The translations under genes and the position numbers were made by a program. The notes beneath the pieces were generated by a model. The model had not been told where the DNA came from. It saw nothing but the letters and a program-made list of their open reading frames with translations, and made no database searches. This document shows positions 1,524-63,232 of a DNA stretch of 63,232 nt, piece after piece. The first letter of the stretch is position 1, and each line of letters opens with the position of its first letter. This stretch comes from Lysobacter sp. (GTDB lineage: Bacteria > Pseudomonadota > Gammaproteobacteria > Xanthomonadales > Xanthomonadaceae): contig JABFWF010000157.1 in NCBI GenBank assembly GCA_013362405.1, positions 1 to 63,232 on the forward strand. Direction: 5' to 3'.

Positions 1524-3926
1524 GTGACCATCGAGACGCTGACCGACATCCCGCCACCCCAGGCCGCCGCCGACATCGGCCAGGCCGGTTTCGCCCTGAC
1601 CCCGCCGCACGCGCCGGCGACGATGACCGTGACCAAGCGCGACGGCCGCCGCGAGCCGGTCGACGTCGGCAAGATCGTGCGCGCCGTGCAGCGTTGCGCG
1701 GGCGCGCTCGACGACATCGACCCGATGCGCGTCGCGCTCAAGACCATCGGCGGCATCTACGACGGCGCGACCACCCGCGAGCTCGACGAACTGTCGATCC
1801 ACACCGCCGCGGCGTTCACCGCCGAGGAGCCGCAGTACTCGCGCCTCGCCGCGCGGCTGCTGTCGGGCTTCATCGACAAGGAGGTCGCCGGCCTGGGCGT
1901 GCATTCGTTCTCGCAGTCGATCCTGCTCGGCCACGACCTCGGGTTGATCAACGACCGCGTGCGCGAGCTGGTCGAAGCCAACGCGCGCAAGTTCAACGAT
2001 GCGGTCGACCCGGCGCAGACGCAGCGCTTCGAATACTTCGGCCTGCGCACGCTGTACGACCGCTACCTGCTGCGCCATCCGCACCGGCGCCACGCCATCG
2101 AGACGCCGCAGCACTTCTTCATGCGCATCGCGGTGGCGCTCACCGACAGCCCGGCCGGTGCGCTGCAGCTGTACCGGCTGATGTCCTCGCTCGACTACAT
2201 CCCGAGCTCGCCGACGCTGTTCAACGCGGGCACGCGCCACGAGCAGCTCTCATCGTGCTTCCTGCTCGACTCGCCGCAGGACTCGCTCACCGACATCTAC
2301 GCCCGCTACGGCGACGTCGCGCAGCTGTCGAAGTTCTCCGGCGGCATCGGGCAGGCCTACCACCGCATCCGCGCGCGCGGCTCGCTCATCCGCTCCACCA
2401 ACGGACGCAGCAACGGCATCGTGCCGTGGCTGAAGACGCTCGATGCGTCCGTCGCCGCGGTGAACCAGGGCGGCAAGCGCAAGGGCGCCGCCTGCATCTA
2501 CCTCGAGACCTGGCATGCGGACATCGAGGAATTCCTCGAGCTGCGCGACAACACCGGCGACGAGATGCGCCGCACGCACAACCTCAACCTCGCCAACTGG
2601 ATCCCGGACCTGTTCATGCGCCGCGTGGAGGAGGGTGGCGACTGGTCGCTGTTCGATCCCAAGGCCGTGCCGGAGCTGCCGGACCTCTGGGGCGAAGCCT
2701 TCGAGCGCGCCTACGCGCAGGCCGAGCAGCAGGGCCTGGTGGCGCGCACGGTCAAGGCGCGCGAGCTGTACGCGCGGATGATGAAGACGCTCGGCGAGAC
2801 CGGGAACGGCTGGATGACGTTCAAGGACGCGTCCAACCGTACCTGCAACCAGGCCGGCCCGGGCCGCACCGTGCACCTGTCCAACCTGTGCACGGAGATC
2901 CTCGAAGTCACGGATGCGGAGGAGACCGCGGTCTGCAACCTCGGCTCGATCAATCTCGCGCAGCACGTGGGCGAGGACGGCTTCGACTTCGACAAGCTTG
3001 CCGAAACGGTGCACGTCGCGGTGCGCCAGCTCGACCGCGTCATCGACCTCAACTTCTACCCGATCGAATCGGCGCGCCGTTCGAACCTGCGCTGGCGGCC
3101 GGTCGGGCTCGGGGTGATGGGCCTGCAGGACGTGTTCTTCCGGCTGCGCCTGCCGTTCGATTCCGCCGAGGCGCTGTCGCTGTCGACGCGCATCGCCGAG
3201 CGCATCTACCTGCACGCGCTGGAGGCCTCGTGCGAACTCGCCGAGCAGCACGGCGCGCATCCGTCCTTCGCGGAAACGCGCGCCGCGCAGGCTGAGCTGC
3301 AGTTCGACCTGTGGGGCGTGGCGCCGACGCAGGCCGATGCCTGGGAGGCATTGAAGGCGCGCATCGCGCAGCACGGCCTGCGCAACTCGCTGCTGGTCGC
3401 GATCGCGCCGACGGCGACGATCGCCTCCATCGCCGGGTGCTACGAATGCATCGAGCCGCAGGTGTCCAACCTGTTCAAGCGCGAGACGCTGTCGGGCGAC
3501 TTCGTGCAGGTCAACCGCCATCTCGTCGAGGAACTCAAGAAGCTCGGCCTGTGGACGCAGGCGGTCCGCGATGCGATCAAGCTCGGCGAAGGCTCGGTCC
3601 AGGCCGTCGAGGCGATTCCCGAAACGCTGCGCGGGATCTACCGCACCGCATGGGAGCTGCCGCAGAAGGCGCTCATCGACCTCGCCGCCGCGCGCGGCGC
3701 CTACATCGACCAGTCGCAGTCGCTGAACCTCTTCATCGAAAGCCCGAACATCGGCCGCCTGTCGTCGATGTACATGTACGCCTGGAAATCGGGCCTGAAG
3801 ACGACCTACTACCTGCGCTCGCGTCCCGCCACCCGCATCGCCAAGGCCACGGTGAGTACTCCCTCACCGCAGGCAGCTGTCGCGTGCTCGCTGGAGAATC
3901 CGGAGGCGTGCGAGGCGTGCCAGTAA
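1524..3926 (+). CDS. nrdA: ribonucleoside-diphosphate reductase alpha subunit (class I)
   Basis: It has an ATP-cone (MTVTKRDGRREPVDVGKIVRAV), the catalytic core (NLCTEI, GLGVMGLQD, AIAPTATIASI) and a C-terminal Cys pair (CSLENPEACEACQ). The GTG at 1524 follows GGAGAGG; an alternative ATG is at 1623. Confidence 0.9.
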   Translation: MTIETLTDIPPPQAAADIGQAGFALTPPHAPATMTVTKRDGRREPVDVGKIVRAVQRCAGALDDIDPMRVALKTIGGIYDGATTRELDELSIHTAAAFTAEEPQYSRLAARLLSGFIDKEVAGLGVHSFSQSILLGHDLGLINDRVRELVEANARKFNDAVDPAQTQRFEYFGLRTLYDRYLLRHPHRRHAIETPQHFFMRIAVALTDSPAGALQLYRLMSSLDYIPSSPTLFNAGTRHEQLSSCFLLDSPQDSLTDIYARYGDVAQLSKFSGGIGQAYHRIRARGSLIRSTNGRSNGIVPWLKTLDASVAAVNQGGKRKGAACIYLETWHADIEEFLELRDNTGDEMRRTHNLNLANWIPDLFMRRVEEGGDWSLFDPKAVPELPDLWGEAFERAYAQAEQQGLVARTVKARELYARMMKTLGETGNGWMTFKDASNRTCNQAGPGRTVHLSNLCTEILEVTDAEETAVCNLGSINLAQHVGEDGFDFDKLAETVHVAVRQLDRVIDLNFYPIESARRSNLRWRPVGLGVMGLQDVFFRLRLPFDSAEALSLSTRIAERIYLHALEASCELAEQHGAHPSFAETRAAQAELQFDLWGVAPTQADAWEALKARIAQHGLRNSLLVAIAPTATIASIAGCYECIEPQVSNLFKRETLSGDFVQVNRHLVEELKKLGLWTQAVRDAIKLGEGSVQAVEAIPETLRGIYRTAWELPQKALIDLAAARGAYIDQSQSLNLFIESPNIGRLSSMYMYAWKSGLKTTYYLRSRPATRIAKATVSTPSPQAAVACSLENPEACEACQ

Positions 3927-57349: not shown

Positions 57350-58714
57350 CTAAGAAGGCGTCTTCTGCCGCGGCGCCAGCAGGTTGTCGCCCACCTGCGC
57401 CTGCTGCGCCTCGGCGAGCTGCGGGTCGATCGCGTGGTCCACGGAGGTGTCCGCGCTGGCGTCCGGGGACAGCTCCGCCTGCTCCATCGACGCGGGCGTC
57501 GGCGCCGGCACGCCGGCGCGGCGGATGCCGGCGCGGTCGAGCGCGGTGGCGGCGCCGCGCATGGCTTCACTGCGCACGCGCTTGAGGTCGTTGCGGCGCT
57601 GGTCGACCCAACCGAGCACCTTCAGCGTCACCCGGTCGGGCAGCATGTCCTGCACGAGCACATAGGCGCCCGGTTCCGGCAGCACGCCTTCCACCGTGCG
57701 CGCGGCGTCCAGCGCGATGCGCTGCGCGTCCGCGATGCACGCGCCCGGATCGAGCGGTAGGTCGAAGTCGAAGCGGCTGCGCGGGTTCTGGCTGTAGTTG
57801 GTCACCACCGACTTGAACACCAGCGCGTTCGGCAGCGACACCTGGTTGCCGTCCAGCGTGAGCAGCAGCGTCGCGCGCGAGGTCAGCGCGACGACCTTGC
57901 CGTCGTATTTGTCGATGATCAGGTGGTCGCCCGGCGCGAACGGCCGGCGCAGGCTGAGCAGGATGCCGGCGACATAGTTCTCGGCGATGTCCTTGAACGC
58001 GAAGCCGGCGACCAGGCCGACCACGCCGGCCGAGCCGAGCAGTGCGCTCACCAGCGTGGTGGCGTCGAGCAGGTCGAGCGCGAGCACGATGCCGACCAGC
58101 ACGACCACCGTCTGCACGGTGCGGCGCACCAGCCCGTCCATGTACGGGTTGTGGCTGCGCGCGCGCAGCCAGTCGGCCGGGCGGCGTGCGAGCGCGCGCC
58201 CGAGCCATGCCGACAGCAGCACGATGAGCAGGCCGATCGCGAGCAGCGGCAGCGCCGCCACGCCCCGCACCAGCTTGCCGCGCGTTTCGTTCAGCGCGGC
58301 GTCGAAGCGCGTGCGCAGGTCGGCATCGAGCTGGATGTCGTTGACGACGTCGCTGACGCCCTGCACCTGCTTGGCGAGCGACGTCGCACGGTCGCGGTCC
58401 TCGTCGGCCAGCGCCTGCCCGGCGAGCGTGACCACGCCGGCGTTCACTTCGACGGTGACCTTCTGCAGGTTCGGCTGCCGCAGCAGCCGGGCCGTCACCG
58501 CGGCGGCGATGCGACGGTCGTCCTTCTCGCCGGCGCGTACCTCGGCCGCGACCTGGCTGGCCGCGGCAGTGCCGGGCGCGTTGTAGGCGGCCGAGCCGGA
58601 CAGCGGCGCGGGAGCGACGGACGCGGACGACGCGGGGACCGCCGCGGAGGCGGGCAGGGCGGCGGCCAGCAGCGAGCAGAGGCAGGCGCCTGCCAGCAGG
58701 CGGTGCAGGCGCAT
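57350..58714 (-). CDS. MscS-family mechanosensitive channel with an N-terminal BON domain
   Basis: Signal peptide, BON domain (VTVEVNAGVVTLAGQA..VQGVSDVVNDI), TM helices, and the MscS beta domain (PFAPGDHLIIDKYDGKVVALTSRAT). Its ATG overlaps the cls stop. Confidence 0.8.
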   Translation of the reverse strand: MRLHRLLAGACLCSLLAAALPASAAVPASSASVAPAPLSGSAAYNAPGTAAASQVAAEVRAGEKDDRRIAAAVTARLLRQPNLQKVTVEVNAGVVTLAGQALADEDRDRATSLAKQVQGVSDVVNDIQLDADLRTRFDAALNETRGKLVRGVAALPLLAIGLLIVLLSAWLGRALARRPADWLRARSHNPYMDGLVRRTVQTVVVLVGIVLALDLLDATTLVSALLGSAGVVGLVAGFAFKDIAENYVAGILLSLRRPFAPGDHLIIDKYDGKVVALTSRATLLLTLDGNQVSLPNALVFKSVVTNYSQNPRSRFDFDLPLDPGACIADAQRIALDAARTVEGVLPEPGAYVLVQDMLPDRVTLKVLGWVDQRRNDLKRVRSEAMRGAATALDRAGIRRAGVPAPTPASMEQAELSPDASADTSVDHAIDPQLAEAQQAQVGDNLLAPRQKTPS

Positions 58715-59979
58715 CACAGCTGCGACTTGAACGGCTGCACGAACTTTTCCGAGAGCTTTTCCTTCCATGGCCGCCGCGCCCATTGCGCGTAGGTATAGGG
58801 CACGGAATGCCGCAGGTCGTCATCGAACACGCGCGTCATCTTCGCGGCGAAGGTCGGGTCGTACACGTTCAGGCTGGCCTCGTCGTTGAGCTGGAAGGAG
58901 CGCAGGTCGAAGTTGGTCGAGCCGACCGAGACCAGCAGATGATCCACGATCAGCACCTTGTTGTGGAACATCGTGGGGTCGTACTCGGCGATTTCCACCC
59001 CGGCCTGCAACAGCGGCCCCCACGCGGCCTTCGACGCCATGCGCGCCGCGTCCGAATCGGTGTTCCTGCCCGGCACCAGCACGCGGATCTTCACCCCGCG
59101 CCTGCGCGCCGCCACCAGCGCCTTGCTGACCAGCGCATCGGGGATGAAGTAGGCGGCCTCGAGGTCGATGCTGCGTTCGGCCGCCGCGATCGCCAGCAGG
59201 TACATCAGGTGCATGCTTTCCGCGCCGCTCGCGGGCGAACTGATGAACACGTGCGCGTCCATGTCGCCCACCGGCTGCAGCGGCGGGAAGTAGTCCGCGC
59301 CGTTGAGCACCTCGCCGGTGGTCTTGATCCAGTTGTCGTTGAACGCGGCCTGCATCTGCGCGACGACCGGGCCTTCGATGCGGAAATGCACGTCGCGCCA
59401 GTGATCCGGATCCTGCGCATGGCCTCGCCACGGATCGCCGATGCCGACGCCGCCGGTGAAGCCGACCTTGCCGTCGATCACCAGCAGCTTGCGGTGGGTG
59501 CGGTTGTTGAGGCGGCCGATGTTGTACCAGTGCAGCGGGCGGTAGCGCTCCACGCGCACGCCCGCATCCTGCATCTCCTGGAGTTGCTTGCCGTCCATCG
59601 TGATGCTGCCGACCCAGTCGATGGTGACGTCGACCGCGACCCCGGCGCGGGCGCGCTCGGCCAGTGCGTCGGCGAACGCCTGGCCGACCTGCCCCGACCA
59701 GTAGATGTAGGTCTCGAAGGTGATCGTCTTCCGCGCGCTGCGGATGCCGGCGAGCATGGCCGGGAAGATCTCGTCGCCGTTCTCCAGGTCCTCGACCTGG
59801 TTGCCGGGGATGATCGCCGGCCCGAGCATCACCCCCATCTCGCGGCGGAACTGCGGGTCGGCGACCGCGTAGCGATGCTCGATCTTGCGTTCGAGCTTCT
59901 TCTCCGGGGTGGCGAAGTTCATGGCGATCGCGACCGCGAACACGGTCAGGATCGCGGTCAGGACGATGGTCCAGGTCAT
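58714..59979 (-). CDS. cardiolipin synthase-like phospholipase D family protein
   Basis: N-terminal TM segment and two HKD motifs (HRKLLVIDGKVGFTGG and HNKVLIVDHLLVSVGSTN). Alternative start at 60033. Confidence 0.85.
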   Translation of the reverse strand: MTWTIVLTAILTVFAVAIAMNFATPEKKLERKIEHRYAVADPQFRREMGVMLGPAIIPGNQVEDLENGDEIFPAMLAGIRSARKTITFETYIYWSGQVGQAFADALAERARAGVAVDVTIDWVGSITMDGKQLQEMQDAGVRVERYRPLHWYNIGRLNNRTHRKLLVIDGKVGFTGGVGIGDPWRGHAQDPDHWRDVHFRIEGPVVAQMQAAFNDNWIKTTGEVLNGADYFPPLQPVGDMDAHVFISSPASGAESMHLMYLLAIAAAERSIDLEAAYFIPDALVSKALVAARRRGVKIRVLVPGRNTDSDAARMASKAAWGPLLQAGVEIAEYDPTMFHNKVLIVDHLLVSVGSTNFDLRSFQLNDEASLNVYDPTFAAKMTRVFDDDLRHSVPYTYAQWARRPWKEKLSEKFVQPFKSQL

Positions 59980-60139
59980 CCGCTTGCGGTTCCAGGGGCC
60001 GGGCACGAAGCAGCGCTCCACGCGAGTGCGCATTCATGCTCTGGGTCGGCGCTTGATCGTCGCGTGAAGCGTCCTCTGGCCGGATGCGCGTTGCGGGGGC
60101 GTTGACCCGGTATCGACCTTCCCCCGGAGGCGATCGGCC

Positions 60140-62299
60140 TTGGACGTTCCCCCGCGCTACTGGGCCTTTCTCAGCTACAGCCATGCCGACCGGCGCATGG
60201 CCGAGCGGCTTCACCGTGCGCTGGAGGGCTACCGCATCCCGCGCCGGCTGGTCGGCCGATCCGGCCCGCAGGGGCCGGTTCCCGCGCGCCTGTATCCGGT
60301 GTTCCGCGATCGCGACGAGCTCGACGCGCGCGGCGAGATCGGCAGCGTGGTCGAGGCTGCGCTCGCCGCCAGCCGCACGCTGGTCGTGTTGTGTTCGCCG
60401 AAGTCGGCGCGCTCGCAATGGGTGGAAGCGGAAATCGAGGCGTTCCGGCGCCTGCATCCCGATGCGCCGGTGCTGTGCGTGCTGCTCGACGGCGAACCCC
60501 TGGCGGCGGTCGAGGCCGCGCGCGAATGCCTCGGCCCGACGCTGCGCGCGCGCTTCGGACAGGGCGTGGGCACCGCCGACCGCGCCCCGGTCGCGGTCGA
60601 TTTGCGTGCGAACGGCGATGGCTGGCGGCTCGGCCTGCAGAAACTCGTCGCCGGCATCGCCGGCGTGCCGCTGGGCGAACTGGTGCAGCGCGATGCGCAG
60701 CGTCGCCACCGGCGCATGGCGTGGCTGGCCGCGGTGCTCGCCGCGATCGCGGTGGGATTCGGCGCGCTTGCGTCGGTCGCGCTGGTGGCGCGCAACGACG
60801 CGCAGCGCAGGCAGGCGCAGGCGGAAGACCTGCTCGGCTTCATGCTTGGCGACCTGCGCGACAAGCTGCAGAAAGTCGGCCGGCTCGACCTGCTGGACAG
60901 CGTCGGCGACAAGGCGATGGCGTATTTCGACAGCCTCGACCCGCGCGACCTCAACGACCGCACGCTCGCCTGGCAGGAACAGGCGCTGACCCAGCTCGGC
61001 CAGGTGCGGCTCAACCAGAACCGTTATCCGGAAGCGCAGGCGAGCTTCGAGCGCGCCTACGCGCGCAGCAGGGCGCTGGTCGACCGCCATCCCGGTGGCG
61101 GGAGCCTGCTGTTCGATCGCGGCCAGGCCGAATACTGGATCGGCTTCGTGTACTGGCAGCGCCGCGACCTCGACCGCGCGCAGCTGTGGCTCACCCGCTA
61201 CCGCGACACCTGTCGCGCGGTGCATGCGATCGACCCGAACAAGGTCGAGTGGCTGCACGAGCTGGCGTACGGGGATGCGAACCTTGCCACCGTCGAGCTC
61301 GAGCGCGGACGGCTGCATGACGCCGGCGGCGGCTTCCGGCGTGCCTACGCGACCCTGCAGGCGGTCCGCGCGAAGACGCCGGACGACCCGCAGGTCGCCT
61401 ACGACATGGCCGACAACCTGTCGTGGCAGGGCAACGTCGAGGAGCAGCTCGGCCATCTCGATCGCGCCGAGGCCTTCCTTGCCCGGACGGTCGGAGGCGT
61501 CCGCCGGATCGCCGCCGGCCAACCCAAGGATCCGAACTGGAAATACCAGCTGGCGAACGTTGAGCTGCTGCTGTCGGCCCTGCAGGGCGCGCGCGGCCTG
61601 CATGTGCAGTCCGAGGCGACGGCGGCCGCAGCGCTCGCGCGCATGCAGGCACTGGCGGCCTTCGATCCCGGCAACAAGGAGTGGCGCCGGGCCTACCTGC
61701 GCGCACTGGTGCTGCATGCGCGCGCCAGGCTGGGGCAGTCACGGTTCGAGGAAGCCCGCGCCGATCTCGCGCGCGCGCAGCCGCTGCTCGATGCGTCGGC
61801 CGACGTCGAGGGTTCGGACCGGCTGGTGCGGCGCGAGATGCTCGACGCGTTCACGCTGCGCGGCCTGCTCGCGCTGCATGACGGCGACCGCGATGCGGCA
61901 AACGCCGCGGCTTCGCAACTCCGGAAGCTCTTCGGCGCGGGTGAGCGGCCGGATTCGGCCGAAGAAACCGGCCGCTACGCCTTGGGCCAACTGATCATTG
62001 CCGCAGCCTCCGCCGGCGACGGGCGCGATGGCGACGCAGCGTCGAATTTCGCTGCCGCGCGCGAGGCGCTGCAGCCGTTCGTGGGCGACTCCCGCTACTG
62101 GCGCGTGCTCGATCCGTGGGTGCGCGTGTCGCTGCTCACCGGCAATCCAGACGCAGCGGCCCAGGCGCAGGCGCGCCTCGCCGGAGAGGGCTACGTCCCC
62201 CTGTTCCCTTGGCCAACCACGGCCATCGCCTCGCGCATCGGACGCGCGTCGTCGTTCACCGGCAAGGCTGCCGCCGCCAACGCTCCGGGCGAACCCTAA
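60140..62299 (+). CDS. membrane-anchored TIR-domain protein with a long TPR-like C-terminal region
   Basis: TTG start 9 nt after GGAGG. TIR domain (YWAFLSYSHADRRMAERL..VFRDRDEL..LVVLCSPKSARSQWVEAEIEAF). TM helix (MAWLAAVLAAIAVGFGALASVALVA). About 500 aa of helical repeats follow. Confidence 0.8.
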   Translation: MDVPPRYWAFLSYSHADRRMAERLHRALEGYRIPRRLVGRSGPQGPVPARLYPVFRDRDELDARGEIGSVVEAALAASRTLVVLCSPKSARSQWVEAEIEAFRRLHPDAPVLCVLLDGEPLAAVEAARECLGPTLRARFGQGVGTADRAPVAVDLRANGDGWRLGLQKLVAGIAGVPLGELVQRDAQRRHRRMAWLAAVLAAIAVGFGALASVALVARNDAQRRQAQAEDLLGFMLGDLRDKLQKVGRLDLLDSVGDKAMAYFDSLDPRDLNDRTLAWQEQALTQLGQVRLNQNRYPEAQASFERAYARSRALVDRHPGGGSLLFDRGQAEYWIGFVYWQRRDLDRAQLWLTRYRDTCRAVHAIDPNKVEWLHELAYGDANLATVELERGRLHDAGGGFRRAYATLQAVRAKTPDDPQVAYDMADNLSWQGNVEEQLGHLDRAEAFLARTVGGVRRIAAGQPKDPNWKYQLANVELLLSALQGARGLHVQSEATAAAALARMQALAAFDPGNKEWRRAYLRALVLHARARLGQSRFEEARADLARAQPLLDASADVEGSDRLVRREMLDAFTLRGLLALHDGDRDAANAAASQLRKLFGAGERPDSAEETGRYALGQLIIAAASAGDGRDGDAASNFAAAREALQPFVGDSRYWRVLDPWVRVSLLTGNPDAAAQAQARLAGEGYVPLFPWPTTAIASRIGRASSFTGKAAAANAPGEP

Positions 62300-62333
62300 C
62301 GCCCGCTATCGCATGTCCCTGGAGGATCCCGCC

Positions 62334-62723
62334 ATGCCCAGCAACGCCAGCGTGACGCTCGATGTCCGCAACTTTCCTTCCACCGGCTCGGACGGCTACA
62401 CCAACACCACCGCGTCGAACAACGCGATCTACAGCTACCGCTACACCGGCGGCAGCGACAACGGCGGCGACGTGGACTTCAACGGACGCGGCCGCGTCAC
62501 CCTGACCGTGCACCTGCAGAGCGACCCGCGCTACCAGATCGGCAACGTCGGCTTCACCGGGGATACCAACAACCAGCTCACGTGGCTGGCGGAGAACGCG
62601 CCGACGACCGCGGTGATCCAGGACGTCAACACCGTCGTGCAGAACGCCAGCTACAAGATCACCGTCAATGACACGACGGCGAACTGCACGGTGCCCTGCG
62701 ATCCGCAGATCAACAACAAGTGA
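62334..62723 (+). CDS. small Thr/Asn/Gly-rich protein of unknown function (129 aa)
   Basis: The ATG is 7 nt after GGAGGA. There is no signal peptide. The composition looks beta-strand-like, and the protein ends CTVPCDPQINNK. It may belong to the family annotated 'DP-EP'; this is from memory and not verified. Confidence 0.6.
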   Translation: MPSNASVTLDVRNFPSTGSDGYTNTTASNNAIYSYRYTGGSDNGGDVDFNGRGRVTLTVHLQSDPRYQIGNVGFTGDTNNQLTWLAENAPTTAVIQDVNTVVQNASYKITVNDTTANCTVPCDPQINNK

Positions 62724-62809
62724 GCGGGCGCGCGGGATCGGACGCGGGACGCCGGCGCGTCCTGCCGGTCGTCGGCGTGCCGCCGTCCCGCGACCGCCAC
62801 TGAACCCGC

Positions 62810-63232
62810 ATGGCCGTGGCGGCGCCAGCGCAGGCAGGCCCGGCGGTGCACGCGCCCGCGCCGGCCATCGCCACGCCCGCCACCGCGCTGGTGCTGGGCG
62901 TCACCAGCCACCGCGATCTCGTGCCGGAGGACGTACCGCAGCTGCGGCACTTCCTCGGCGGGGCGATGGCCGAGTTGCGCCAGGCGTTCCCGGAACTGTC
63001 GCTGGTGATGCTCTCGCCGCTGGCCGAAGGCGGCGACCAGCTCGCCGCGGAGGTCGCGCTCGGCCTCGGCGCGCGGCTGGTGGTGCCGCTGCCCATCCCG
63101 GTCGAGCTCTACCTCGAGGACTTCGCCGACAGCGAAGCGCGGATCCGCTTCCTGTGGCTGCTGGCGCAGGCCGACGTGATCCCGTTGACGTCGGCGACCA
63201 CCGACCTCGACCGGCTGCGCACGCCCGGTCCC
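62810..63232 (+). CDS. SLOG-like (YpsA/DprA/LOG Rossmann) domain protein, 5' fragment cut by the window end
   Basis: Open frame to the window edge, so it is absent from the track. An in-frame TGA lies 9 nt upstream of the ATG. Pattern: LGVTSHRDL..LSPLAEGGDQLAAEVALGLG..RLVVPLPIP..YLEDF..LLAQADVI. Confidence 0.5.
   Translation, partial: MAVAAPAQAGPAVHAPAPAIATPATALVLGVTSHRDLVPEDVPQLRHFLGGAMAELRQAFPELSLVMLSPLAEGGDQLAAEVALGLGARLVVPLPIPVELYLEDFADSEARIRFLWLLAQADVIPLTSATTDLDRLRTPGP

Follow-up and report, generated by a model that had tools for sequence, protein, structure and literature searches.

Signalling from TIR domains to SLOG and SLATT proteins is an active field, with Thoeris types now numbered from I to XI. 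To our knowledge, the described systems use soluble TIR proteins, and little is known of how bacterial TIRs become activated. In type I Thoeris the SLOG domain senses 3'cADPR and in type VII SLATT effectors respond to cADPR; 'TIR + SLOG and 4TM' stands among 29 putative, unvalidated Thoeris configurations, and two 'SLOG and 4TM' representatives, from other phyla, gave no defence in E. coli (bioRxiv 10.64898/2025.12.03.692087). Here we describe a three-gene locus at the end of a 63,232-nt stretch of Lysobacter DNA (the window), the output half of which is known in kind because 'SLOG and 4TM' is already listed as a Thoeris candidate: in that class, as in the relatives of the window, a TIR gene adjoins a gene for an effector that has a SLOG domain and four membrane helices (Tables S1 and S2 of the same preprint). 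The TIRs of that class (Ca. Nitrospira nitrosa, Streptomyces sp. GKU 895) are without the motifs of the window family, as far as Table S1 gives them, and the main text of bioRxiv 10.64898/2025.12.03.692087 contains no match for third gene, accessory, peptidase or periplasm. Thoeris types I, III and IX (SLOG effectors) and VII (ThsB TIR and ThsH SLATT, cADPR) resemble the pathway proposed here in that a SLOG or SLATT protein responds to an ADPR derivative produced by a TIR, and they share the membrane-disrupting outcome that is predicted for SLATT. In contrast to these types, a single protein combines SLOG with a double SLATT in the relatives of the window, a membrane helix and about 500 aa of repeats are attached to the TIR, and a DP-EP gene is always present; moreover, there is no TIR in the effector, unlike in type IX, and no SIR2, unlike in type I. 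A preliminary description of the locus, made from the sequence letters, had stated that it does not fit the canonical ThsA/ThsB layout, and this mismatch is supported.

We know of the DP-EP family only from a structural-genomics study of self-cleavage. Its SO1698 protein from Shewanella oneidensis is said, in work attributed to Osipiuk et al. (J Biol Chem 2012), to cut its own Asp-Pro bond.

The locus and its predicted TIR receptor gene

The three open reading frames are co-directional on the forward strand (60140-62299, 62334-62723 and 62810-63232), separated by 34 and 86 nt with no terminator-like site between the genes, and GC3 values of 0.87, 0.94 and 0.94 make all three frames look coding. 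Gene 1 (719 aa) has a TTG start with GGAGG upstream, gene 2 (129 aa) has GGAGGA 8 nt upstream, and gene 3 is open at the window end after 141 aa. The three frames, their gaps and the strong Shine-Dalgarno sequence of the 129-aa gene exist as they had been claimed.

The TIR domain of gene 1 extends over about aa 7-180 (60158-60679), with Pfam matches in stretches of aa 10-120 to TIR_2 (2.9e-11, 44.4 bits, curated cut-off 28) and ThsB_TIR (5.5e-8, 33.6 bits, curated cut-off 21.2); PADLOC yielded weak TIR matches only, and a PDB sequence search with gene 1 yielded none. At least 95% of a set of 62 homologues keep W94 and E98, which form the WxxxE element within SQWVEAE. E98 (codon 60431-60433) presumably occupies the position of the catalytic Glu, by analogy with plant, SARM1 and bacterial TIR NADases, and the TIR of gene 1 is predicted from its sequence to cleave NAD+. 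One hydrophobic helix follows at about aa 194-217 (60719-60790), preceded by a basic patch (RRHRR) and with a hydropathy peak of 2.45 at about aa 197-216; the peak reaches at least 1.93 in 62/62 homologues. The net charge of the flanks (+4.2 on the N side versus +1.1 on the C side) is likewise higher on the N side in all 62, and because of this N-side-positive charge the TIR is predicted to be cytoplasmic and the repeat region periplasmic. The remainder of the gene (60791-62296) encodes a juxtamembrane motif (LLGFMLGDLRDKLQKVGRLDLLD), conserved according to the conservation profile, and then about 500 aa of variable repeats, the putative periplasmic sensor. The best Pfam match of these repeats is TPR_8 (1.8e-4, below cut-off), so that 'TPR-like' is an acceptable name for gene 1 while TPR is unproven; strong TPR matches occur in relatives with other heads. 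Of the earlier claims for this gene, the N-terminal TIR with its Trp-x3-Glu element and the single membrane helix can be retained, and the TPR-like repeats can be retained as such but not as TPRs proven in the window protein.

The small partner gene and the putative sensor module

The 129-aa protein of gene 2 (62334-62723, forward strand) had been left without a function and regarded as an interposed extra, and both views need revision. Its AF2 model (pLDDT 83) is all-beta, and the AlphaFold and Foldseek check that had been recommended returned SO1698 (PDB 3n55, 3nji and others) as the top match (E 1.3e-6), with a beta-sandwich fold alike at TM 0.6-0.7 overall and 0.69/0.74 for this match; the gene-2 family profile also found the SO1698 sequence (7.6e-5), in an alignment in which the termini line up. 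The C-terminal D/P-x-I-[IK]-N-x of SO1698 aligns residue for residue with the window tail (SPD116/P117QIINR and PCD123/P124QINNK, respectively), and P, I and N of this motif are invariant in the gene-2 family, Asn-Pro replacing Asp-Pro in about half of it. Compared with SO1698, gene 2 is too diverged for the Pfam model: PF08985 is matched by 9/55 gene-2 homologues (best 1.6e-5), Pfam, NCBIfam and PADLOC found nothing in the window protein, and Pfam and NCBIfam gave noise only for six other small proteins. In the alignment, read by eye, Lys98 of SO1698, which reportedly becomes linked to Asp116, has no equivalent in gene 2 and is not conserved in the family, and Asp37 is only partly so. As judged from the modelled fold and the aligned tails, gene 2 is very probably a diverged member of the DP-EP family (DUF1888, PF08985). 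By analogy with SO1698, the predicted site of self-cleavage is the Asp123-Pro124 bond (62700-62705), six residues from the C-terminus, ahead of the C-terminal hexapeptide PQINNK (62703-62720).

Far from being an extra, the small protein is a constant partner of the TIR-TM-TPR gene, since one to three ORFs with the tail motif lie directly downstream of the TIR gene in 62/62 relatives; the strict motif has 64 matches in 1.46 Mb, all inside TIR/DP-EP loci. No tail-motif ORFs were found beside rhizobial plasmid-borne TIR relatives, so the DP-EP link is not valid for all related TIRs. The partner proteins are highly variable in sequence and mostly without a signal peptide; Sec signal peptides were seen on some tail-bearing ORFs (peptides in L031 and L069/L076, a 247-aa DP-EP in L097, and P0197). 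Two other roles were considered and rejected: a phage mimic or decoy, for which a BFVD fold search gave no match at E <=1e-3, and a system like the FxSxx-COOH system of Haft (peptide, TIR-like FxsC and TPR protein FxsT), which came into view because of a weak FxsC_Nterm match (1.7e-4, far below cut-off) and lacks support from a radical-SAM gene or from the motif, which is another one.

Variation in the gene-2 protein follows that of the TPR part (Spearman 0.81; partial correlation given TIR and SLOG 0.72, reached in 0/999 permutations) and not that of the TIR (0.10) or SLOG (0.11) domains, a pattern that neighbouring stretches of DNA could also owe to having recombined together, without any binding. 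The closest relative (L004) matches the window in blastn with 83% identity over 57951-62214 and 78.5% over 62880-63231 and has no match between 62214 and 62880; it has kept a similar TPR part and carries an unrelated small protein, the cassette at 62215-62879 being replaced in an otherwise collinear locus. At some loci the sensor genes occur in tandem duplicates.

The juxtamembrane/TPR part of gene 1 is matched by 4156 representative proteins, the heads of which are TIR, Pkinase or nSTAND1, and in BLASTP (2e-27) it matches the corresponding part of a wHTH-nSTAND1 protein that is Shewanella-like. The gene immediately before SO1698 likewise encodes a protein with this TM/juxtamembrane/TPR module, in the order of genes 1 and 2, although its head is wHTH-nSTAND1 and that of gene 1 is TIR. 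The TM/TPR and DP-EP cassette resembles a portable sensor, since it also follows wHTH-nSTAND1 and Pkinase heads; the kinase-headed relatives are paired with ECF sigma genes. Judged from these sequences, such a receptor module points to general transmembrane signal transduction, not to a dedicated phage sensor.

The SLOG gene and its genomic setting

For gene 3 (62810-63232, forward strand), the preliminary description had made a by-eye call of an N-terminal SLOG domain and had guessed that the unseen part is the effector. No Pfam, NCBIfam or PADLOC model matched the 141-aa fragment, the N-domain had no Pfam or NCBIfam match at E up to 1, full-length homologues included, and the family profile found nothing among PDB sequences. 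However, the AF2 model (pLDDT 81) of a homologue 69% identical to the fragment (P0002) has an N-domain that matched YpsA (4.7e-6), DprA, ShosA, a MoCo carrier protein, LOG and TRPM8 in Foldseek, and the loops GVTSHR, LAEGGD and GGT are invariant in the family. The SLOG call is thus supported at fold level on this homologue, with no profile match, and the domain falls outside the curated SLOG family models (LOG, YpsA, DprA, TPALS, LDcluster4, LSDAT). Since the window holds 141 codons of gene 3 only, the SLATT part is seen in relatives alone; an exact look-up of the 129-aa protein returned a 1.2-kb contig only, and with no extension beyond it the rest of gene 3 is deduced from relatives. The full-length relatives have about 560-590 aa, four membrane helices and two SLATT-like modules; in four of them, matches to SLATT_3/DUF4231, SLATT_1 and SLATT_6 were consistent and mostly below cut-off, DUF4231 exceeding the Pfam cut-off in two (L033, L076), and SIR2 had no match in full-length homologues. 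UniRef names the gene-3 homologues SLATT or DUF4231 proteins. This four-helix, double SLATT-like module agrees with the effector guess, and by analogy gene 3 may bind a messenger and form a pore.

The neighbourhood proved to be conserved, a check that had been recommended: a TIR-TM-TPR gene lies <=10 kb from a gene-3 homologue in 59/80 species-level genomes (co-directional in 53), and the synteny of the three genes is far beyond chance. The TIR plus signal-sensing effector operon of Thoeris is therefore found here, the effector having a SLOG fold and, in relatives, a SLATT-like four-helix part; the SLOG-4TM gene is without an adjacent TIR in 21/80 loci. An independent trio in the alphaproteobacterium Novosphingobium consists of a TIR-TM-TPR gene, a DP-EP-like gene and a TPR-S and SLOG-like protein without TM helices. 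Several TIR/DP-EP pairs surround one SLOG-4TM gene at some loci and other pairs are unlinked, as a messenger that diffuses would allow one to expect. Across Luteimonas and Lysobacter, members of the gene-3 family share 70-87% identity and the SLOG-4TM gene keeps its position beside metH-like genes, and the upstream genes of the window are housekeeping genes (PLD/Cls, BON-MscS, fumarase and similar). There are no known defence genes in the 10 kb upstream of the locus, PADLOC did not recognise genes 2 and 3, no relatives were found among IMG/VR viral contigs, and plasmid relatives were absent for both the SLOG-4TM protein and SO1698. On its upstream side and in the PADLOC, plasmid and viral searches, the locus thus does not look like a defence island or a mobile element, and an origin from a mobile element was rejected on the viral and plasmid results.

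Proposed pathway and alternative explanations

We consider it rather probable that the three genes form a Thoeris-like transmembrane TIR signalling module, composed of a sensor (genes 1 and 2), an NAD-derived messenger and a SLOG-SLATT output. Gene 1 would be a single-pass inner-membrane receptor with its TPR-like part in the periplasm and its TIR in the cytoplasm, and gene 2, with its variable beta-sandwich, would be the cognate DP-EP partner that completes the sensor. Activation would bring TIR domains together, which would convert NAD+ into an ADP-ribose-derived messenger; this would be bound by the SLOG domain of gene 3, the four-helix SLATT module would open or assemble, and the membrane would be permeabilised, with growth arrest or cell death as the result. 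Phage, envelope or pH stress, and kin signals are candidate triggers. Since most DP-EP partners are without a signal peptide, a direct contact with a TPR part whose predicted place is the periplasm is unexplained.

Several known receptors offer analogies of layout, no sequence relationship having been shown between them and the window locus. ToxR/ToxS and CadC likewise have a cytoplasmic output, one helix, an outside sensor and a small downstream partner. Toll-like receptors combine a repeat ectodomain with a cytoplasmic TIR, although their TIRs are scaffolds, not enzymes. In the RRNPP systems, too, a TPR receptor neighbours a small gene whose C-terminus carries meaning; those receptors, however, are found in the cytoplasm and have diversifying peptides, while in the present family the tail is constant and the body varies. 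We also suggest, tentatively, that in a TLR-like layout the periplasmic repeats might read a highly variable, self-cleaving DP-EP or its freed tail and an NAD messenger might gate a SLOG-SLATT channel, DP-EP and TM/TPR being a widespread two-gene sensor for TIR, Ser/Thr-kinase/ECF-sigma and STAND/DNA-binding outputs.

A narrower form of the three-gene pathway, an abortive-infection defence of the Thoeris kind with a phage trigger and cell suicide, is a genuine possibility, though we lean against it and a defence role is unproven. The TIR and SLOG/SLATT logic is that of the validated types I, III, VII and IX, 'SLOG and 4TM' is a Thoeris candidate, a variable partner swapped as a cassette and tandem sensor duplicates are typical of conflict systems, and nSTAND1 heads are described in such systems (eLife 10.7554/eLife.70394). 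However, the SLOG-4TM gene is highly conserved at a fixed position, known defence genes are missing from the upstream 10 kb, SLOG-4TM plasmid relatives and viral-contig relatives were not found, PADLOC models do not recognise the system, the two 'SLOG and 4TM' candidates that were assayed did not protect E. coli, and the same cassette serves ECF-sigma-linked kinases and DNA-binding heads as well, pointing to ordinary signal transduction. The last point would rather favour a physiological sensor of envelope, pH or cell-cell signals, in which the periplasmic TPR part reads the DP-EP state or the freed tail peptide, much as ToxR/ToxS, CadC or peptide-TPR receptors do, and the TIR-SLOG-SLATT arm tunes membrane permeability. 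Its receptor module is common to wHTH, STAND and ECF sigma-paired Ser/Thr-kinase heads, that is, gene-regulation outputs; the locus has been conserved vertically in a housekeeping setting, Sec signal peptides occur on some tail-bearing ORFs, and the S. oneidensis protein is cited in PMC11655445 as cleaving itself at low pH. We nevertheless find this reading doubtful, since an export signal is missing from most DP-EP partners, the tail stays constant across genera whereas signalling peptides usually diversify, and a pore-forming SLATT output is odd for routine regulation.

It is quite improbable that the TIR is an NAD+-depleting effector without a signal and the SLOG-4TM gene an independent neighbour. 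Many bacterial TIRs deplete NAD+, and TIR/DP-EP pairs and SLOG-4TM genes (the latter in the 21 loci above) do occur without each other, but the adjacency extends across many genera, in Novosphingobium the TIR/DP-EP unit is paired with a SLOG-like protein of another build, and unlinked pairs would be expected with a diffusible messenger.

The preliminary description had suspected an undescribed defence or signalling system. This does not hold for the output half, known in kind, nor is defence established, but it stands for the sensor half: we know of no prior description of TIR-TM-TPR with DP-EP, and no paper linking DP-EP to TIR was found in the literature. In the window, a TIR is joined to a predicted transmembrane receptor, the partner of which is obligatory and evolves fast. 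If the pathway is not functional as proposed, the locus is still a clean case of a conserved chromosomal TIR-SLOG pathway outside defence islands, which would question the assumption that such pairs always represent phage defence. If it is functional, it would provide a defined, testable activation route for a TIR enzyme, the first biological role for DP-EP/DUF1888, and a common sensor module for TIR, kinase and STAND receptors in many bacteria.

Gene order, the TIR-TM-TPR protein and the SLOG-4TM protein

The three genes at the 3' end of the window lie on the forward strand at 60140-62299 (gene 1, 719 aa), 62334-62723 (gene 2, 129 aa) and 62810-63232 (gene 3, 141 aa, cut off by the end of the window). 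They are co-directional with gaps of 34 nt and 86 nt, as stated in the preliminary description, and no terminator-like site was found between them. GC at the third codon position is 0.87, 0.94 and 0.94, respectively (window 70% GC). The 10 kb 5' of gene 1 contain ordinary genes, encoding a PLD/cardiolipin-synthase-like protein, a BON-MscS channel, a class I fumarase, a BON protein, a glucose/sorbosone dehydrogenase, a glutamate-synthase-domain protein and a UDP-glucose dehydrogenase.

The TIR domain, the Trp-x3-Glu element and the single membrane helix attributed earlier to gene 1 were all borne out. Pfam returned TIR_2 (2.9e-11) and ThsB_TIR (5.5e-8), each above the curated cut-off, and an alignment of 62 homologues revealed a strongly conserved TIR core, including FRDRDEL and both W94 and E98 of WxxxE, the latter residue being predicted as catalytic, as the Glu of this element is known to be in TIR NADases. 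One strongly hydrophobic helix is present in every homologue (peak at least 1.93, median 2.39, n = 62). Its N-terminal flank is the more positive in 62/62 homologues (mean net charge +4.2 vs +1.1 on the C-terminal side), which predicts a cytoplasmic TIR domain and a periplasmic C-terminal region. A conserved juxtamembrane motif (window form LLGFMLGDLRDKLQKVGRLDLLD) follows immediately C-terminal of the helix; the repeat region beyond it is poorly conserved in the same alignment, and TPR matches by Pfam were single and sub-threshold (aa 281-331).

For gene 3, a search of the 141-aa fragment with curated models (Pfam, NCBIfam, PADLOC) gave no match, and none of the described SLOG family models fits its family. 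The SLOG call, previously made by eye, nevertheless holds at the fold level: the AlphaFold2 model (pLDDT 81) of the N-terminal domain of P0002, a relative's protein 69% identical to the window fragment, had top PDB fold matches that all belong to the SLOG superfamily (YpsA 2nx2, 4.7e-6; DprA; ShosA; the MoCo carrier protein; LOG; and the N-terminal region of TRPM8). The invariant segments of the family (GVTSHR, S-x-LAEGGD and GGT) appear, by our reading, to occupy the positions of the SLOG nucleotide-binding loops. Full-length homologues (~560-590 aa) carry two pairs of membrane helices C-terminal to the SLOG domain, which match SLATT_3/DUF4231 and SLATT_1 consistently, mostly below cut-off (DUF4231 exceeds it in two of four homologues), and several family members are named SLATT or DUF4231 proteins in UniRef. 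The part of gene 3 beyond the window, which had been suggested as a possible effector, is, judging by these relatives, probably a SLATT-like 4-TM module. Homologues split into two ORFs were observed in the relatives' loci L002 (10001-11413) and L003 (9798-10881; many genes on this contig are fragmented, probably by indel errors), and such fragmentation explains why many database entries of the family are only ~200 aa long.

Relatives of gene 3 occur in 256 species (scan of one genome per species), and the best 80 of the 256 are nearly all Lysobacterales (Lysobacter, Luteimonas, Frateuria, Rhodanobacter, Dyella, Luteibacter and Dokdonella). The trio proved to be a conserved neighbourhood in related genomes: in 59 of the 80 genomes, a TIR-TM-TPR gene and the gene-3 homologue are at most 10 kb apart (co-directional in 53, divergent in 6). 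In Lysobacter and Luteimonas, the SLOG-4TM gene has a conserved context beside metH-like genes whether or not the TIR pair is present, and its protein is 70-87% identical across the two genera.

The small protein as a diverged DP-EP member

The 129-aa protein of gene 2 also had no match among curated models. A small ORF is found 3' of the TIR gene almost everywhere among the compared loci, including those of Dyella in which the TIR gene diverges from gene 3; the small gene thus accompanies the TIR gene. These ORFs form many groups, apparently unrelated by BLAST, with a common ending, [D/N]-P-x-I-[K/I]-N-x. An ORF with this tail motif occurs 3' of the TIR gene in 62/62 cases (one match, in locus L070, is doubtful); the small gene is a constant partner of the TIR gene, not the interposed extra of the earlier description. 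A stricter motif yielded 59 TIR genes with 1-3 tail ORFs each, and in a six-frame translation of 1.46 Mb all 64 occurrences of the strict motif at an ORF end fell inside these loci.

Modelled with AlphaFold2 from an alignment of 55 sequences (pLDDT 83), the window protein adopts an all-beta sandwich, whose best PDB matches (E 1.3e-6, TM 0.6-0.7) are the entries of SO1698 from Shewanella oneidensis, a member of the DP-EP family (DUF1888). These entries are titled 'aspartic peptidase' and include D116A and P117A mutants, consistent with cleavage of SO1698 at the Asp116-Pro117 bond. The profile of the small-protein family matched the SO1698 sequence (7.6e-5) and aligned the two C-termini without offset (SO1698 ...LVLSPDPQIINR, family consensus ...tvpcDPqIkNk, window ...TVPCDPQINNK). 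PF08985 (DP-EP) in Pfam is matched by 9 of the 55 homologues (best 1.6e-5) and not by the window protein. The modelled fold, the profile and the tail alignment with SO1698 indicate that gene 2, formerly left without an assignable function, belongs to the DP-EP family as a diverged member, and its self-cleavage site is predicted by homology at D123/P124. In roughly half of the family the bond is Asn-Pro rather than Asp-Pro, and Asn-Pro is also a known self-cleaving bond type. One source describes SO1698 as an endopeptidase that cleaves itself, and cites low pH as the condition for this cleavage (PMC11655445).

The window protein contains C118...C122 (62685-62699), a Cys-x3-Cys conserved just before the predicted scissile Asp in its DP-EP subgroup, and in several other subgroups a conserved Cys immediately precedes D-P and another Cys lies upstream; the pair may form a disulfide, which would hint at an oxidising compartment.

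Three classes of tail-bearing ORF can be distinguished: proteins with a beta-sandwich fold (100-206 aa), ~50-aa ORFs that are acidic and rich in proline, and, in L031 and L069/L076, a few peptides that have two cysteines and an evident Sec signal peptide. Codon-position GC favours translation of both size classes; for the ~50-aa ORFs, GC3 and Shine-Dalgarno-like sites suggest that they are translated. The latter (L019, L020, L021, L027, L030, L043, L058, L060, L067 and others) were observed ~0.1-1 kb 3' of TIR genes; they are acidic, rich in Pro/Asn/Thr and apparently disordered, with no fold for self-cleavage and with the same tail. The exported peptides (~65 aa, forward strand, ~9311 in L031 and ~9665 in L069 and L076; Sec signal peptide MKKRIALSVAFGIALAATSALASA...) are sited 3' of the DP-EP gene and share a conserved NWFAC...C cysteine pair and a TTxDP/NPxIKN tail. 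Most DP-EP partners have no export signal, whereas the protein that they are presumed to bind is predicted to be periplasmic; this is the main unexplained point. A minority of tail-bearing proteins have a signal peptide.

Some genomes hold several TIR/DP-EP pairs, arranged in tandem in L024, L048 and L050; up to three TIR genes surround one SLOG-4TM gene (L089-L091), and pairs also occur without a SLOG-4TM gene nearby (L084, L092-L094). L084 (Lysobacter sp. CFH 32150, JALDWJ010000004.1, 7827-10426) is a second pair in the genome of L007, located between gltBD and folE/recBCD and with no SLOG-4TM gene in its vicinity. In L092-L094, a divergent 286-aa SIR2-family gene (2628-3488, reverse strand) lies upstream of the pair and could be either a coincidence or an alternative NAD-linked partner. 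A 1.8-Mb replicon of Novosphingobium displays the same gene order with a different third gene: a 548-aa TIR-TM-TPR protein and a 158-aa ORF (C-terminus IDPDIKNPPPQV) are followed by a protein of 491 aa that combines a TPR-S domain with a SLOG-like core and has no membrane helices.

Co-variation and reuse of the putative sensor

In 44 TIR/small-protein pairs, similarity among small proteins was correlated with similarity among parts of the cognate proteins. The post-helix (TPR-like) part of the TIR protein gave a Spearman coefficient of 0.81, whereas the TIR domain (0.48) and the SLOG-4TM protein (0.49) gave far lower values. With TIR and SLOG controlled for, the partial correlation for the TPR part was 0.72, a value reached by 0/999 label permutations (maximum 0.40), and those with TIR and SLOG were 0.10 and 0.11. 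The TPR-coding DNA adjoins the small gene, so a common history of recombination could account for the correlation instead of physical interaction. L004, from a Lysobacteraceae MAG, is the closest relative and aligns collinearly with the window, with 83% nucleotide identity over 57951-62214 and 78.5% over 62880-63231; 62215-62879 has no nucleotide similarity to L004, which between collinear flanks indicates that the small gene was replaced in place.

In metagenomic loci with SO1698 orthologues (PF08985, 1.2e-38), the DP-EP gene lies ~20 nt 3' of the gene for a ~1080-aa protein with an OmpR/CadC-type winged helix (Trans_reg_C), an nSTAND1 NTPase, one hydrophobic helix and TPR repeats; neither a TIR domain in this protein nor a SLOG gene near these loci was found. 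The protein bears the same juxtamembrane motif as gene 1 (LLGFMVGDFADKMRGIGRMDLLD), and its residues 587-952 align with residues 188-561 of gene 1 (E 2e-27), an alignment that begins at the basic patch preceding the helix. Residues 188-719 of the window protein, used as a query against 1.84 billion representative proteins, retrieved 4156 relatives (607 at E <= 1e-30), in which the aligned region begins near residue 175-215, 320-440, 540-680 or 890. Long-headed relatives that were sampled carry Ser/Thr kinase or nSTAND1 heads. Four gene loci were looked up, three kinase-headed, each with an ECF sigma gene 5', and one nSTAND1-headed; all four genes are followed within 12-310 nt by an ORF in which the tail motif recurs close to the end (...FVCDPKIKNE..., ...GVIDPGFRHQPI, ...YVCDPKVRNG and ...GIVDPGISHDS...). 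DP-EP and the helix/juxtamembrane/TPR module are thus a two-gene unit recurring behind different cytoplasmic heads. Kinase, nSTAND1 and TIR heads must be cytoplasmic, in agreement with the topology predicted for gene 1.

L108, L111 and L113 encode Ser/Thr kinase-TM-TPR relatives, each with an ECF sigma factor gene before and a DP-EP-like ORF after it; L108 and L113 are also flanked by PIN/antitoxin pairs. On the Shewanella-like metagenome contigs (L095-L098, L104 and L105), a PAS-GGDEF diguanylate cyclase gene was seen 3' of the SO1698 orthologue in 6/6, with two other ORFs intervening in L095 and several in L105, and L097 has an additional 247-aa DP-EP paralogue with a signal peptide.

A proposed transmembrane TIR signalling module and its relation to Thoeris

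With the domain identities, linkage, co-variation and modularity observed here, the best-supported reading of the trio is a transmembrane TIR signalling module, for which we infer the topology, self-cleavage, chemistry, gating and trigger. Gene 1 as receptor and gene 2 as DP-EP co-sensor would together form the sensor, the TIR domain of gene 1 would generate an NAD-derived messenger, and this messenger would act on the SLOG domain that gates the SLATT membrane effector of gene 3.

A preprint of December 2025 defined Thoeris types V-XI and 29 putative types; SLOG senses 3'cADPR in type I, several TIRs accompany a SLOG effector in type III, and type VII combines a TIR with a SLATT effector and a cADPR signal (10.64898/2025.12.03.692087). 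Among the effectors in its Table S2 are 'SLOG and 4TM' proteins of Streptomyces and Ca. Nitrospira, which gave no defence in E. coli, and no TIR with the motifs of the gene-1 family was found in the portion of its tables covered here; its main text yielded no mention of a third gene, accessory, peptidase or periplasm (10.64898/2025.12.03.692087). For DUF1888, PF08985, DP-EP or SO1698, the open literature yielded one paper, on an unrelated application, and no description that connects DP-EP with TIR, kinase or STAND receptors.

The trio may serve in anti-phage defence. A highly variable, swappable sensor and a Thoeris-like output would suit such a role, but the housekeeping surroundings, the strong vertical conservation, its absence from both mobile elements and viral contigs, and a sensor common to ordinary regulatory heads speak against it. 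The features noted in the preliminary description were confirmed, and its proposal of an undescribed Thoeris-like defence or signalling system is supported in part. The output half of the signalling module is Thoeris-like, a new variant. The part for which no description was found, and which is directly testable, is the sensor half, a membrane-anchored TIR receptor with an obligatory DP-EP partner, common to kinase and STAND receptors.
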